This document shows positions 100 through 5,707 of a stretch of DNA of 5,707 nt, one piece after another (positions within the stretch are counted from its first letter, which is position 1; every line of letters begins with the position of its first letter). The translations under genes were made by a program, and so were the position numbers. The DNA is taken from IMG/VR virus record IMGVR_UViG_3300045988_011488; one strand, written 5' to 3'. The DNA comes from a virus. The notes under the pieces were generated by a model. That model saw only the letters and a program-made list of their open reading frames with translations. It was not told the DNA's origin and made no database searches.

Positions 100-162
100 C
101 GAACTGCCTCTAATTGAGTTTTCAACACTTTCAACACTTTCAACAGGTTTTCCACAAAAAGT

Positions 163-182: not shown

Positions 183-211
183 TATTGCTACACTTTCAAC
201 AATTCAACAAT

Positions 212-220: not shown

Positions 221-298
221 AAATTATCAACATTAAAATGAACCATAAAATATCGTTTTGCGGATAAAAATTCATAGTATTCAACATTTCAACACTCC

Positions 299-319
299 CT
301 ACTACTACGACTACAACAA
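299..319 (-). promoter_or_regulatory. Trinucleotide run resembling DnaA-trios (minus strand 5'-TTG TTG TAG TCG TAG TAG TAG-3')
   Basis: The plus strand reads CTA CTA CTA CGA CTA CAA CAA. Four of seven units are the preferred trio 5'-TAG-3' (3'-GAT-5'). The run lies 4 nt from paired boxes (278-294), separated by ctcc (295-298) with c299 opening the first unit, and directly abuts a pure A/T tract. Confidence 0.45.
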
Positions 320-320
320 G

Positions 321-342
321 TTAATAATAATATAATAAAAAT
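321..342. other. 22-bp 100% A/T tract (candidate DNA unwinding element)
   Basis: ttaataataatataataaaaat contains no G or C. It is flanked by the trinucleotide run on one side and a GC-alternating block on the other. Confidence 0.5.
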
Positions 343-384
343 CGTGCGTGTACGTGCGCAATTATGCGCGCGTGCGCGCGCGTG
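343..384. repeat. Alternating pyrimidine-purine (CG/TG) tracts forming a 40-bp imperfect palindrome
   Basis: 343-360 (18 nt) and 363-384 (22 nt) alternate Y-R perfectly. Arm 343-360 pairs with arm 365-382 around the loop atta: 14 Watson-Crick pairs and 4 G-T pairs when read on the plus strand. Confidence 0.7.
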
Positions 385-390
385 TTGATA

Positions 391-444
391 AAACTAAAAA
401 ACACTCAGCCAAGTATATATACTTGATAGTTACTTGGCTGAGTG
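391..444 (-). terminator. Rho-independent terminator downstream of VP4
   Basis: On the minus strand, 10 nt after the VP4 stop, there is a perfect 14-bp stem CACTCAGCCAAGTA / TACTTGGCTGAGTG (444-431 / 415-402) with a 15-nt loop. It is followed by TTTTTTAGTTT (401-391). Confidence 0.7.
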
Positions 445-453
445 ACACCAGGG

Positions 454-1473
454 CTAAAAAATGCCCTTTGCTTTGGACATCTTCTTCTTCATGACCGCTT
501 CTTTATCGGCCAGTTGTTCGGCGTACTGTTTGTCAGTTTTCATGTTTCTTTCGATTAGGGATGCTATGGCTTTTTCTTGTCGATATTGCTTGATTCTCCA
601 TGCCTTTTCAGGATTTTCTGCTTCCAGTTTTCGCCAATAATATTCTGGAATGGCTGCTCTCTTGCCGTTTGTCAGCTGGATGTATCCAAGTTGCCATAGC
701 CTTTCTTGATTCTTTTGAAACCATTCGTCCCCGAGTCCTGGCTTTCGGCTCATTACGCAGAATGGCGGTATGAGCCCCATTTTCTTGTACCTGTCTCTGT
801 CGTTTCCGTACAGCTTCTTGGTCACATATCCAGCTACGTAGTTATATGTTTCTGGCGTTGCTTGAGCTATATCAACTGTCCCTTGTCCCCAGACTTTGAC
901 CAGTTTATCGCTCGTGTAGTGTCCAAACCTTGACAGCTTGTGAATTGGCTTTAAGTCGTCTGGATACCATCCGTATAGTATCATGTGATAGTGTGGTCTT
1001 GAGGTGTTGTCTCCATACTCTCCGGCTAAGAAGTATCTGAGAGGCTCGTTGACGGCCTTTCTGAGCCTTTTCATGAATAACTGGACATCCTCCACGCTTA
1101 AGGTTTGCACCGTTCTGGGACGCTCTGAGGCGCCTTTCCATACGTTCACGCCTCCCTTGAAGATTTCCCCTGTTTCTGCGTCCTGTGTCGGCACGTGGTC
1201 GTCATCATAGGTTAATGTTATAAACCAGATGCTTTCCTTGTCGTGGCTGTATGCTTCTAGCTCCATCCGTGTGGCCCAGTCTTTGCGTTTGCGTAGTTTG
1301 CATCCTGTGCATTGTCCACACGGTATCATCATTACATCTTTGCGATACATCAGGTCTTCATATCGCATTTTGGTTTTATGAACTTCGTTAAAAGAAGCGA
1401 GTGAGTATACTCGCCCACTCGCTTCCCTGTCGTGAGGTACATAAAACCGGATTAACGGTTTATTGCATCCCAT
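454..1473 (-). CDS. VP4: Replication initiation protein VP4 (HUH endonuclease, phiX174 gpA-like), 339 aa
   Basis: The ORF has an ATG start. Rep motifs are present: FITLTY (motif 1), PHYHMILYG (HUH motif 2) and YNYVAGYVTKK (two-tyrosine motif 3; compare phiX174 gpA YVAKYVNKK). The Cys-rich N-terminal PCGQCTGCKLRKRKDWATR is typical of gokushovirus VP4. The start abuts the VP2 stop (TAAATG). Confidence 0.93.
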   Translation of the reverse strand: MGCNKPLIRFYVPHDREASGRVYSLASFNEVHKTKMRYEDLMYRKDVMMIPCGQCTGCKLRKRKDWATRMELEAYSHDKESIWFITLTYDDDHVPTQDAETGEIFKGGVNVWKGASERPRTVQTLSVEDVQLFMKRLRKAVNEPLRYFLAGEYGDNTSRPHYHMILYGWYPDDLKPIHKLSRFGHYTSDKLVKVWGQGTVDIAQATPETYNYVAGYVTKKLYGNDRDRYKKMGLIPPFCVMSRKPGLGDEWFQKNQERLWQLGYIQLTNGKRAAIPEYYWRKLEAENPEKAWRIKQYRQEKAIASLIERNMKTDKQYAEQLADKEAVMKKKMSKAKGIF

Positions 1474-2322
1474 TTATTTTAGTTTTCCTTTCCAAAATTC
1501 GACGTTTTTGTTTCCGATGAAGTCTCTTCCCGGTTTGTATTCTAACTCATCTTTCTTCGGTTTTCTCCCTGCGCCTCCGCCGACGCCATTGTTTAGGTTG
1601 CTGAGGTCGTTGAAGACGTTCTTGAATGCATTAAACGCTTTGTCTGCGCTTGTGTGGGACCAGCTTGTAGCGTCTCCAACCGCTTGTGCTGCGTTGTACC
1701 AGTTGCTTTCGCTTTTGCTCCATGTGTTGTTGTGGTTCTGGCTTACTCCGAGAGCGCTTGCAGTCGCCGCACTGCTGCTTGCGAGTCCCATGCTTGCCCC
1801 GCTGATAGTGGCTTGTGCGCCTCCTGGAGTGCTTGCTCCTCCCTGTTGGTATGCCAAGATAGGGTTGATTCCTGCTTTTCGCATATCTTCCACGGCTCGC
1901 TGATAAGCTGTGCTGCTCATTTGCTCTTGCCAAGCTCTGTTTTTGGCTGCTTCTGCGCTGTTGTAGGCCATTGCCGCGTTGTTGCTTATCTGGTTATATA
2001 CACCCTGAGTGATTGCTGCCATGGTGTTATAGCCCATTTGTTCGAACATGCTCCGACGGTTAAATCTTTGCTGGCTTTGCATGCTTCCCTTGATCGCTGC
2101 TAGCATGCTGTTCCAGTCTTGCAGGTTCTGTTCTCGGTTTACGCCGCTGGCGGCGCTGCTTTGGCCGCCTCCCTGGCTCAAACTTTCGTTGTGCTGACTG
2201 CTCCCCCCGTTGCTTTCCATCAGATTTCCGCCCAGGAATTTGTTTATGAGTCCTCCGGCGATTGTCGGGAGTAGTTGTTTTCCGATTCCGAGCAGTGCGC
2301 TGCCGATTGCTGCTAACGCCAT
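1474..2322 (-). CDS. VP2: Minor capsid / DNA pilot protein VP2, 282 aa
   Basis: It lies between VP1 and VP4, as in gokushoviruses. It has a hydrophobic N-terminus ([26 protein letters not shown]) and a Gly/Ser/Gln/Ala-rich low-complexity body. The segment [20 protein letters not shown] resembles the conserved VP2 core as I recall it. Confidence 0.8.
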
Positions 2323-2363: not shown

Positions 2364-4028
2364 TTAGTGATGGTCTACGAGGCCCGGAATGCTGTACATT
2401 GGCATTGGTCTCACAGATGTATTGTCAATGACGGTGTCCACGATAAACTGAGGTTCATTGTCTACCGCCAGAGTTCTTTGAATTTCAGAGTCTCCTTCCT
2501 TCATCCAAGCTTGGCTCAGGCTCGGAGTCTCTTTGTAGTTGTCGCCGTAGTGCCAGCTGTCCAGAGTCCCCGTTGCATTTGAACGGAACTTGCCGCTGAT
2601 GCGGTTTGGTTTCATCCGATACTCTGCCCATGCTTCCTGATAACCAAAGGCCTGTTCGTCGGTGTCTGTACCAGTGAGATACAGCTCCTTCTTCAGAATA
2701 GCCTGCTCTCCCAGATTTGCGAAGACGGGATAATAAAAATCCAGATTCGTCTTGCGGCTCCACATGCGCTCCAAGCCCTGTTGGTAGGTATGGTCATGCC
2801 GGATGCAGCACACGCCGATGACATAGCCGTGCTCTTCGAAGCTCTTCGTGAACATGTTGCCGTTGTACGGCGTAACACTGATTGCCGCGGCGTTGCCCTG
2901 CGGACTCTCCTGTGTCGTGCCGCTGGTCTGAATAACCTGGCTCATGTTGATAGTGATGCGTGTACCGCCCAGATACTCCGGAATTTGCACCGTCTTATCG
3001 CTGATTTTCGTATGGAACAGCGAATAAATCATCTCGCGGTAACGGCTGCCACCTCGCGCCAGCTGTTCATAGTACTTCTGTATCTGGAATGCCTGCCTCA
3101 GTTGATTGATGGTTGTTGCCGTTGCTTCTTCCAGGTTTGCGCCCAGGAAGTGCATGTTATCTCCCGATGCCATGCTTATAGATCTTCCATTGTACATGCT
3201 GTCGTATTGGTACGACATTGGGCCTGGCCAGCTGTAGTTTCCATCCAGTTTTGCCAGTTTCGTTAAATTTCTGTCTTCGTATACTGATATGTCGGCTACA
3301 CCGTTTATCGGGATTTTTACCGGTTCTCCCGCTTTCTGAGGGGAAGGCAAAGCCGATGTGAAGTAGTCGTGGTCCTTATTTATCGGCAGCGGTCTGCCGC
3401 CGGTGTATGCGTTTTGGAGAATATACTCAAGGTCAGGCTTCTCTGTGTCCATGCCCTTTGTTTCATCATCCGTATAGTTTACGGTTGCGTCCTCGGTGCT
3501 GTTGATGGCCGGATTGTCCACGTTCTGGTCTCGGAACCACTCCTGCCAAATCATAGCGTATGCGCGGAACGGCAGTGCGTTAACGCTGAAGGCTGTACTT
3601 TCTCCCTTGCTCACCTTGGTAGGAATGCCCATGTAATCCATGATGCTTCCTTCATAAGGCGCCGGCTTGTCAGCTGTGCCAGTTACTTTGACCTGCGGAA
3701 TGGTGTATTCCTGAGTCTGCGCCCACGGCCCGGTATCGTTTTCGCCCATAAATCGTTTGAAATGGTCCCAGATGATACGGCACGGTACGTTGAAGTAGTA
3801 AATATCCATGTGGCAGTTGTCCATAACCGGGAAGATAGGCGTTGTCATACGGATAATTGCCGCTTGGTCGATGCTGAAGGTATCGCCGGGCATCACCTCA
3901 TCCACATAAAACGGGATGAGTTGGCCCGCGTTCATCGTTAGTTTTACATCCTGCCGCCGTTTGAAGCGACTTCGTGTAATATCCAGTCTCGGAACTTGGT
4001 TAAACCCTGCGTCTTTGTTCCTGTTCAT
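2364..4028 (-). CDS. VP1: Major capsid protein VP1 (Microviridae F-like), 554 aa
   Basis: This is the longest ORF. The N-terminal [43 protein letters not shown] is characteristic of Microviridae major capsid proteins. SD AAAGGAGG (GGAGG at 4043-4039) lies 10 nt before the ATG. The ATG overlaps the VP3 stop (ATGA). Confidence 0.95.
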
Positions 4029-5339: not shown

Positions 5340-5368
5340 ATTATATCAAAAAAGAGGTTTTTTTTCAA
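5340..5368 (-). promoter_or_regulatory. Promoter P2: -35 TTGAAA, 17-bp spacer, extended -10 TGATATAAT
   Basis: Minus strand: TTGAAA (5368-5363), AAAAACCTCTTTTTTGA (17 nt), TATAAT (5345-5340), with TG at 5348-5347. It sits in the gap between the 61-aa ORF and the downstream gene block. Confidence 0.6.
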
Positions 5369-5578: not shown

Positions 5579-5607
5579 ATTGTACCATATTTTTAGAAAA
5601 AAGTCAA
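5579..5607 (-). promoter_or_regulatory. Promoter P1: -35 TTGACT, 17-bp spacer, extended -10 TGGTACAAT
   Basis: Minus strand: TTGACT (5607-5602), TTTTTCTAAAAATATGG (17 nt), TACAAT (5584-5579), with TG at 5587-5586. An A/T-rich UP-like tract lies upstream, across the circular junction (5609-5638 = 1-30). Confidence 0.6.
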
Positions 5608-5608
5608 G

Positions 5609-5707
5609 ATTTTTTTTGAAAAAAGTTAGAAGAATTTTGTCTTGAAGGTCATGCGCTAGGCGCGGTGCGCCGTACGAAGAGCATGACGTGGCTTTCCGGC
5701 TAGCTGC
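5609..5707. repeat. Terminal direct repeat, copy 2 (identical to 1-99)
   Basis: Same 99-nt string as 1-99. The window ends inside the repeat, as expected for a k-mer overlap of a circular contig. Confidence 0.9.

Follow-up and report, generated by a model that had tools for sequence, protein, structure and literature searches.

A conserved cassette in gut microviruses resembles the unwinding region of Firmicutes chromosome origins

The basal unwinding system (BUS) of bacterial chromosome origins, as set out in a literature that spans Richardson 2016/2019 and Pelliciari 2021, 2023, has been defined as a DnaA-box, or a co-oriented pair of boxes, lying 0-16 bp from at least three DnaA-trios (Pelliciari et al. 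2021, PMC8287927). The gap between box and trios is ~4 bp on average, 3'-GAT-5' is the commonest trio, especially beside the box, and the published search program accepts a box with at most two mismatches to the standard motif or, where boxes are paired, with at most two and at most four (PMC8287927). 'Co-orientated' boxes steer DnaA onto the proximal trios, and incC is inactivated when its boxes are reversed. Here we describe a BUS-like module in a stretch of viral DNA of 5,707 nt (IMG/VR record IMGVR_UViG_3300045988_011488, hereafter the window). The two ends of the window overlap exactly over 99 nt (1-99 = 5609-5707), giving a circular genome of 5608 bp, and the window is a complete gokushovirus (microvirus) genome. 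On its minus strand, which is the sense of every gene, positions 342-278 hold the module, and the module in turn forms the left end of a ~225-bp cassette (342-119) with ~8 further co-oriented boxes. In our reading, this cassette probably mimics the region in which a Firmicutes (Clostridia-type) chromosome origin unwinds.

Read 5'-3' along the minus strand, the module (342-278) consists of a 21-nt A/T tract, AAC, seven triplets, GGAG, TGTTGAAA and TGTTGAATA; the original prediction had written the segment exactly so, at the same coordinates. What it took for two adjacent 9-mers is in fact an 8-mer (294-287) followed by a 9-mer (286-278), as in Firmicutes origins. Its interpretation of the triplet run as DnaA-trios holds for five of the seven triplets, which obey the trio rules, but not for TTG TTG. 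The parts of the module and of the cassette are as follows:

322-342, minus strand: A/T tract ATTTTTATTATATTATTATTA, 21 nt and 100% A/T, a candidate DNA unwinding element
319-299, minus strand: seven in-phase triplets, TTG TTG TAG TCG TAG TAG TAG
314-324, minus strand: TTAACTTGTTG, which contains the block TAACTTGTTG and overlaps the first two triplets (TTG TTG)
299-313, minus strand: DnaA-trio-like run TAG TCG TAG TAG TAG (3'-GAT-5' from the box side)
295-298, minus strand: GGAG, the 4-nt G-rich gap from trios to boxes
287-294, minus strand: trio-proximal 8-mer box TGTTGAAA
278-286, minus strand: distal 9-mer box TGTTGAATA, abutting the 8-mer in the same orientation
224-232, minus strand: box TGTTGATAA, one mismatch to TGTGGATAA
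212-220, minus strand: perfect consensus DnaA-box TGTGGATAA (TTATCCACA on the plus strand)
193-209, minus strand: two abutting boxes, TGTTGAAT and TGTTGAAAG
148-156, minus strand: box TGTGGAAAA, which fits the relaxed consensus TGTGNAWAA
119-145, minus strand: three head-to-tail 9-mers TGTTGAAAG TGTTGAAAG TGTTGAAAA (period 9, 2.9 copies, 100% match), the right-hand end of the cassette

The published BUS strings in Tables S1/S2 of PMC8287927, which list the trio strand 3'->5', were reversed to 5'->3' before comparison. They then read TAGTAGAAGTAATAGTAG-GGCC-TGTGGATT-TGTGGATAA for Bacillus subtilis, ...TAGTAGTAG-GGAG-TGTGGATT-TGTTGATAA for Clostridium acetobutylicum and (TAG)6-GGCT-TGTTGATA-TGTTAATAA for C. 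botulinum (PMC8287927); the C. difficile trio sequence is 5'-CACCTACTACTATTACTACTATGA-3' (PMC7561715), and the trios of the window agree with all of these in sequence and polarity. In the same register the window reads TAGTAGTAG-GGAG-TGTTGAAA-TGTTGAATA and has the same 9+8+4 layout, the 'spacer 12' arrangement listed for Bacillus, Listeria, Staphylococcus and Clostridium (PMC8287927). In-register identity is 25/30 to C. acetobutylicum, 24/30 to C. botulinum and 20-22/30 to other Firmicutes, while 100,000 random 30-mers with the composition of the non-coding region gave a mean of 9.2 and a maximum of 22. The gap GGAG is identical in the window and C. acetobutylicum, and together with the 8-mer it makes a spacer of 12 nt (12-13 bp in Firmicutes). 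Trio number, gap length, polarity and the A/T-rich region beyond the trios all agree with the BUS definition. The polarity is that of the B. subtilis, Clostridium and E. coli entries, with the trios on the strand that reads the box as TGTGGATAA. That order and polarity follow bacterial origins was therefore well predicted, since both match the published strings of B. subtilis, C. acetobutylicum, C. botulinum and E. coli; the E. coli oriC offered as a model shares them, but the nearest model lies in the Firmicutes (Clostridia).

The likeness to the Firmicutes BUS (in B. subtilis, incC with DnaA-box#6/#7, trios and an A/T-rich 27-mer; in Clostridium, a predicted element) thus extends to the parts themselves and to their order and polarity along one strand. 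The proximal 8-mer of the window sits where B. subtilis has TGTGGATT and C. botulinum TGTTGATA, the distal 9-mer is the counterpart of DnaA-box#6 in the 9+8+4 layout, and further co-oriented boxes lie on the box side in both systems. Unlike the Firmicutes element, the window module resides in a 5.6-kb single-stranded DNA (ssDNA) phage, has T-form (TGTTGA..) proximal boxes and carries the extra invariant TAACTTGTTG, and the microvirus cassette has a short A/T tract (12-25 nt) and zero-spaced tandem 9-mers. In the circular 5608-bp microvirus it is flanked by Rep and the early promoter, rather than lying in a chromosome origin beside dnaA/dnaN, and we therefore call it BUS-like or BUS-imitating, not a chromosomal oriC.

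Chance does not readily produce such an arrangement. The pattern (TAG)3 + 3-5 nt + TGTKGAWW occurs once in the genome and in 0/2000 Markov-1 genomes trained on the non-coding region. Sites with no more than one mismatch to TTATCCACA number seven in the window against 0.96 expected, a count reached by 0/200 shuffles, and five of the seven fall within 148-391; repeats of the TTTCAACA type number 16 against 6.5 expected. Two reverse-oriented 'boxes' that had been proposed at 391-383 and 259-267 are probably chance matches, being 53% and 67% conserved (percentages of this kind give identity to the window over 42 distinct non-coding regions of close relatives, our clade A).

By the same measure, the triplets are 98.1%, the proximal 8-mer 98.5% and the distal 9-mer 97.1% conserved, against 77% for the A/T tract and 55-70% for the flanking spacers, making the trios and the two boxes the best-conserved part of the entire non-coding region in clade A. 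The A/T tract keeps its composition while its sequence and length change (there are indels in clade A), and the 25 nt 5' of CTTGTTG average 78% A/T over 94 distinct segments. Beyond these close relatives, more than 160 microvirus contigs with the cassette were collected from IMG/VR and divided by identity to the window:

Clade A: Rep 77-96%, VP1 71-95% identical to the window
Clade B: Rep about 55%, VP1 about 52% identical to the window
Clade C: Rep about 43%, VP1 about 49% identical to the window
Clade D: Rep 32-39%, VP1 about 40% identical to the window

Trios and boxes are nearly invariant over these contigs, even though, across clades, Rep is 32-57% and VP1 39-54% identical to that of the window, and CTTGTTGTAG-NN-GTAGTAGTAG, a gap and TGT[G/T]GAAA are kept in all four. 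When six representatives of clades A-D are aligned, the invariant columns fall on trios and boxes and the DNA between boxes has diverged; this footprint-like pattern of columns is that expected of a protein-binding array. The three box-proximal TAG triplets (299-307) are invariant, the fourth triplet varies (TCG/TAG/GAG/AAG/ACG/CAG), and the TAG copy number ranges from 3 to 6 among relatives, many of which have five trio-compatible triplets. Conservation of trio phase and box spacing among relatives had been named as a check, and both are kept, as is the 4-nt gap: seven triplets with a 4-nt gap occur in 74/103 genomes and eight triplets without a gap in a further 18. The gap measures 4 nt in 75/103 genomes while its letters vary (GGAG, GCAA, AGAC, GGGC, others).

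The boxes vary in a restricted way. At the proximal site relatives carry TGTTGAAA (69), TGTGGAAA (11), CGTGGAAA (5) or AGTGGAAA (3), and TGTGGAAA, which fits TGTGNAWAA, stands there in 59 further contigs; it is the usual form in clades B and C, where AGTGGAAA, CGTGGAAA and TGTTGAAA form a minority. The distal 9-mer is AGTTGAAAA, TGTTGAAAA or AGTTGATAA. Across clades, TGTTGA.A is invariant at 224-232, as is TTGTTGAATTGTTGAA within 193-209, and site 212-220 reads TGT[G/T]GA[A/T]AA; site 148-156, 97.6% conserved in clade A, reads TGT[G/T]GAAAACC. The three 9-mers at 119-145 are conserved in all clades. The forms TGTGGATAA, TGTGGAAAA and TGTTGAAAA replace one another at single sites between relatives, and therefore T-form and G-form boxes represent one class of site. 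Among about 3768 GenBank records with a Rep homologue, only 39, of gokushoviruses, have the non-coding region of the window; Rep is at least 80% identical to that of the window in 8 records and below 60% in all others. One clade-B contig (L164, IMG/VR, 5502 nt) keeps the distal boxes, but its GC block, A/T tract and trios are missing together with the proximal boxes; it could be a deletion that is viable, a defective genome or an assembly error.

A scan for (TAG)3-N4-TGTGGAWW revealed a fifth lineage (lineage E: L260 and L261), consisting of circular 4.7-kb microviruses with a Phage_F capsid, Rep and ORF5, whose Rep is 28-29% and VP1 37% identical to those of the window. Directly after Rep stand four perfect TTATCCACA boxes at spacings of 21, 21 and 11 bp, a box count reached by 0/200 shuffles; next come TGTGGAAA-TGTGGAAAT, GCAT, (TAG)5 and an A/T tract, the whole in the opposite orientation to the genes from that in the window. 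Both the block TAACTTGTTG and AACTTG are absent from this lineage, and L260 has two TGTGGAAA boxes besides the four perfect ones. To judge by its sequence, the microvirus L260 combines a DnaA-box cluster of textbook form with a BUS, and lineage E therefore indicates that it is the architecture that recurs, rather than a particular sequence. The same scan found ~50 larger IMG/VR contigs (e.g. L216, L229, L240, L247, L255, L270, L279, L281, L318), roughly half of which have a tandem second box beside A/T-rich DNA, the canonical look of a BUS, the rest resembling coding coincidences. No obvious dnaA or dnaN lies beside the BUS-like sites of these larger contigs, and BUS-like origins could have a wider distribution among phages or other mobile elements.

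An array of this kind could in principle bind some other protein of double-stranded DNA, such as a host regulator, a nucleoid protein, a partition-type centromere binder, Spo0A or a small phage protein, in which case its likeness to a BUS would not go beyond appearance. Its most frequent repeat, TGTTGAAA, differs from the E. coli DnaA consensus at a position that is usually fixed, head-to-tail 9-bp repeats are unusual for DnaA, and an unrelated 44-kb phage contig (L144) also has about ten TGTTGAAA repeats. TGTTGAA is moreover one base away from the Spo0A box, TGTCGAA; the core TGNCGAA is, however, not found, for the repeats read TGTTGAA or TGTGGAA and, without CGAA, miss the required C. The exchange of T-form and G-form at single sites (TGTGGATAA/TGTGGAAAA/TGTTGAAAA) points to one binder that accepts bona fide DnaA-boxes, lineage E has the same architecture with perfect TTATCCACA, and boxes of the TGTTGA type are used by clostridial and Ruminococcus origins. 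A phage-encoded sole binder, which would have spoken against DnaA, also finds no candidate: no phage protein is more than 58% conserved across clades (VP5 is 27-30% identical and undetectable in clade D), too little to explain the invariant sites, and a conserved host protein is for that reason the more economical and more likely binder. Since another binder would in addition leave the trios, the 4-nt gap and the A/T tract unexplained, we consider it distinctly unlikely.

If DnaA is the binder, the cassette could still be a sink or sensor, either titrating DnaA (like datA or B. subtilis inc) and stopping host initiation or controlling phage promoters. There are about ten co-oriented boxes per genome, the cassette lies between Rep and a sigma-A-type early promoter (5607-5579), and DnaA-box clusters carried on plasmids are known to show incompatibility with the B. 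subtilis chromosome. A sink or sensor needs boxes only, however, leaving the strict trios, the 4-nt gap, the box polarity and the A/T tract unexplained, and the position and orientation of the cassette relative to promoters are not fixed. We judge this role unlikely. The datA, DARS and B. subtilis inc clusters resemble the cassette as dense groups of DnaA-boxes outside the unwinding site of a chromosome origin, but we know of none described with trios, a fixed gap or an adjacent A/T tract, all three of which the cassette conserves.

The cassette is found in both orientations. In clades A-C, apart from two contigs of clade B (L123 and L147), A/T tract, trios and boxes run in the gene sense. In clade D the whole cassette is inverted relative to the genes, just upstream of Rep, in 19/19 contigs scored; L154, first placed in clade C and reassigned to D, is inverted too, which brings the clade-D contigs to 20. 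The cassette is also inverted in GenBank records KX513876 (China) and KT264784 (France), and in L123 and L147 it has been inverted in situ, with unchanged flanks. The GGTGTCA hairpin beside it stays in the gene sense wherever it is found (all four clades). That the cassette is found either way round with respect to the genes argues that it would work on double-stranded DNA, and not as a viral-strand Rep nick site or single-strand origin.

This bears directly on two further explanations. In one, the module is an ssDNA signal on the packaged strand for complementary-strand synthesis: an sso-type signal, a primosome assembly site or an 'ABC primosome' DnaA-box hairpin. Microviruses need such a site, and in the window an inverted repeat (211-223/256-268) could put a DnaA-box in a stem. 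We rejected this hairpin, as its pairing is not conserved (259-267, at 67%, reads TTATCCTTG in most relatives). Moreover, no ssDNA structure is predicted in 278-345 on either strand: the module folds with a minimum free energy of 0 on either strand and all shuffles fold at least as well, unlike both hairpins that flank it, which are strongly structured. With the cassette also present in both orientations, a single-stranded signal is extremely unlikely.

The second explanation takes the module for the (+)-strand origin of phage rolling-circle replication, in which Rep (VP4) nicks TAACTTG/TTG, the TAG repeats and boxes bind Rep and the A/T tract aids melting. AACTTG, which matches the left part both of the phiX174 origin (CAACTTG^ATA) and of the pC194-type nick core (CTTG^ATA), lies on the gene-sense strand in the window with the A/T tract adjoining it, and all six aligned representatives of clades A-D share TAACTTGTTG unchanged (TTT, AAT or TAT variants occur in some clade-A relatives). 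The likeness to the 30-bp phiX174 origin (CAACTTG^ATATTAATAACACTATAGACCAC) thus consists of AACTTG beside A/T-rich DNA on the gene-sense strand, together with a related two-tyrosine HUH Rep. In the window, however, the A/T-rich part is on the other (5') side, AACTTG is followed by TTGTAG with no ATA after the G, and the rest of the 30-bp origin is unmatched. The element flips in clade D (19/19), KX513876, KT264784, L123 and L147, which would place the nick on the other strand, as is possible only if those phages package the antisense strand. Further, a 22-nt string stays invariant between clades whose Reps share only 32-57% identity; in lineage E, trios, boxes and A/T tract occur without AACTTG; TAG copies vary from 3 to 6; the module is missing from six other gokushoviruses or microviruses with Reps of the same divergence as in clades C-D; and the detailed 9+8+4 match to the BUS would have to be coincidence. 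A Rep origin is therefore very unlikely to be the explanation of the module.

We consider it probable, instead, that the array on the replicative form is the target of host DnaA, which oligomerises from the pair of boxes at 294-278 onto the minus-strand TAG trios and so melts the A/T tract. The checks made in silico support the original prediction in this. That DnaA is the binder, that it unwinds the DNA and how the opening is used are inferred from the sequence together with the published BUS mechanism. In this scheme, the cassette would work on the double-stranded replicative form, where host DnaA-ATP would first occupy the stronger boxes TGTGGATAA (220-212) and TGTGGAAAA (156-148) and then fill the weaker sites of the TGTTGAAA type cooperatively. 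The pair of 9-mer and 8-mer (286-278, 294-287) would send a DnaA filament over the 4-nt gap onto the minus-strand trios at 313-299, whereupon the A/T tract next to them (342-322), which has no predicted structure, would melt. The opened DNA could then load the host helicase via DnaD/DnaB/DnaI, leading to DnaA-dependent theta-type copying or maintenance of the replicative form; alternatively, it could give the phage HUH Rep access to ssDNA. Of the outcomes that the original prediction had offered, theta or plasmid-like maintenance, helicase loading and titration are all candidates on these data. Because TAACTTGTTG resembles the left part of the phiX174 origin, a Rep event could take place within the region opened by DnaA.

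Several observations weigh against this interpretation. The two proximal boxes of the window have three mismatches to TTATCCACA, two to TTWTNCACA and one to two to the DoriC motif TGTTGAAAA, and three mismatches is one above the limit that the published program sets for the better box. The original prediction had likewise conceded that a change at a normally conserved C weakened its case. The change is present (G->T on the box strand), but the weakness largely dissolves, because clostridial and DoriC boxes share the T, relatives have TGTGGAAA and lineage E has perfect TTATCCACA. Thus the T-form occurs in the clostridial BUS boxes TGTTGATA and TGTTGATAA, Butyrivibrio proteoclasticus has TGTTGAAA beside its trios, the Ruminococcus albus origin reads TGTTGAAAA-ACC-TGTTGAAAA, and the DoriC standard box for some species is TGTTGAAAA or TGTTGATAA (PMC8287927 tables). 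At the homologous site, clades B and C (TGTGGAAA[A]) and lineage E stay within the mismatch limit, which the boxes of the window respect only against the relaxed consensus. The trio rules do not explain the invariant TAACTTGTTG and TTG TTG, which hint at a second recognition event. Nine-mers with zero spacing (145-119) are, to our knowledge, not a described geometry of DnaA arrays. An inverted rolling-circle origin could merely switch the packaged strand. The six control genomes without the cassette include Chp2 and phiMH2K; most microviruses do without it, and it is therefore an accessory or lineage-specific device, not a general requirement. Finally, the search for a matching bacterial origin that had been proposed found none with the exact sequence: a scan of 185,579 bacterial species representatives with CTTGTTGTAGNNGTAGTAGTAG, a phage-specific pattern, found no trio string in a non-coding bacterial context. 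Of its 26 matches, 25 are most likely coding coincidences by their sequence context (e.g. in Glycomyces genes), and the last is a 5.7-kb microvirus contig binned with the metagenome-assembled genome 'Bacteroides sp. CAG:545'.

Extrachromosomal replicons that use host initiators provide another comparison. The origins of plasmids and phages with DnaA-boxes, and oriC minichromosomes (P1 oriR, pSC101, F, R6K), resemble the cassette in setting boxes beside A/T-rich DNA, and they depend on the host initiator, as we propose for the cassette. These plasmid origins, however, pair their boxes with 17-22-bp iterons and a cognate initiator gene, whereas the cassette repeats are box-sized, 8-9 bp, unlike those of an iteron-type origin, and the only initiator gene in the genome is that of the HUH Rep; no plasmid-type initiator was found among the scanned open reading frames (ORFs; five named genes and three small ORFs). 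We know of no trio-type BUS described for P1 oriR, pSC101, F, R6K or oriC plasmids. A search of a plasmid collection gave only 31-nt chance matches, in Acinetobacter.

The genome derives from human gut metagenome ERR525988, and its exact VP1 occurs in one human gut sample only; a search for integrated copies by exact VP1 found only contigs of 5.6-5.7 kb, none integrated. The non-coding region, ~500 bp, extends from the Rep stop (454) over the numbering origin to the promoter at 5607-5579. Genes and promoters are arranged as follows:

454-1473, minus strand: Rep/VP4, a two-tyrosine HUH Rep
1474-2322, minus strand: VP2
2364-4028, minus strand: VP1
up to 5559, minus strand: VP3, VP5 and small ORFs
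5340-5368, minus strand: promoter, sigma-70/sigma-A type, TG-extended -10
5607-5579, minus strand: early promoter, sigma-70/sigma-A type, TG-extended -10

The promoters at 5340-5368 and 5579-5607 have 11/12 and 10/12 matches, respectively, and both precede small early ORFs; the genes after the former are wholly different among close relatives. Because Shine-Dalgarno sites are strong and the -10 promoters extended by TG, as in Firmicutes-like expression signals, the host would appear to be Firmicutes-like rather than one of the Bacteroidetes. Neither promoter nor terminator was found in the module, and no Rfam family scored above its gathering threshold. A 31-codon hydrophobic ORF overlying the boxes (287-193, minus strand; GGGAG, 7 nt, ATG at 287) was rejected as a gene, being broken by stops or loss of the ATG in relatives L006, L007 and L010.

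Three further elements lie near the cassette:

343-383, minus strand: GC-rich block of 41 nt, almost perfectly alternating purine/pyrimidine (RY x20, then RY x17)
402-449, minus strand: GGTGTCA and a hairpin with a 14-bp stem and conserved loop CTATCAAG, directly after the Rep stop
40-79, and by the overlap again 5648-5687: nested hairpin GTCATGC...GGCGC-ACC-GCGCC...GCATGAC, 93% conserved in clade A

The GC-rich block stands between the post-Rep hairpin and the A/T tract, outside the invertible cassette; clades A-C preserve its composition, and clade D lacks the block. It could form Z-DNA or clamp unwinding. The hairpin at 402-449 shows compensatory stem changes in relatives and a DNA fold of -15.9 kcal/mol (z = -7.6), making it a candidate strand-specific element, a Rep nick site and/or a terminator. 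The nested hairpin may be a single-strand (complementary-strand) origin signal. In the 44-kb contig L144 (IMG/VR, probably a tailed phage), the TGTTGAAA repeats, about ten in number, lie at 7180-7350 and cover the 3' end of a 463-amino-acid ORF and the next intergenic region; a 21-nt string, TGTTGAAAGTTTTGTTGAAAA, is common to this contig and the microvirus cassette.

In textbook accounts, microvirus replication relies on the HUH Rep and the host helicase and primosome, and DnaA has no part in it. In the searchable literature we found nothing on DnaA-boxes or trios in Microviridae. Two TGTGGATAA boxes 21 bp apart occur in more than 120 viral contigs, none related to the window phage, and DnaA-boxes as such are therefore not rare in phage DNA. 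Because such pairs are common in other viral contigs, and the BUS itself is known from bacterial chromosomes, what appears to be new is the full BUS architecture in ssDNA microviruses. That distant relatives keep the same module suggests that these gut microviruses recruit the host initiator DnaA.

Looking forward, the module is a compact natural candidate BUS of about 65 bp for in vitro work, and the box dialect offers a sequence-based clue to the host, the TGTTGAAA type resembling origin boxes of Clostridium, Ruminococcus and Butyrivibrio. A bolder proposal, which we regard as tentative, is that several gut microvirus lineages have acquired a host-type origin, from which DnaA could copy the replicative form like a minichromosome, synchronised with the host cell cycle; as a variant, DnaA-driven melting may hand the origin to the HUH Rep, combining theta-type with rolling-circle initiation. 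Colonies have been reported to retain circular gokushovirus DNA in unintegrated form (PMC7062461), and the cassette is a possible molecular handle on such persistence without integration. If the proposal is true, phages that lack an integrase and count as 'strictly lytic' could enter a carrier state like that of a plasmid, which would account for how long they persist in the gut. With a BUS-type cassette that is conserved and orientation-independent in at least five of their lineages, microviruses would have in their replication scheme an additional step run by the host initiator.

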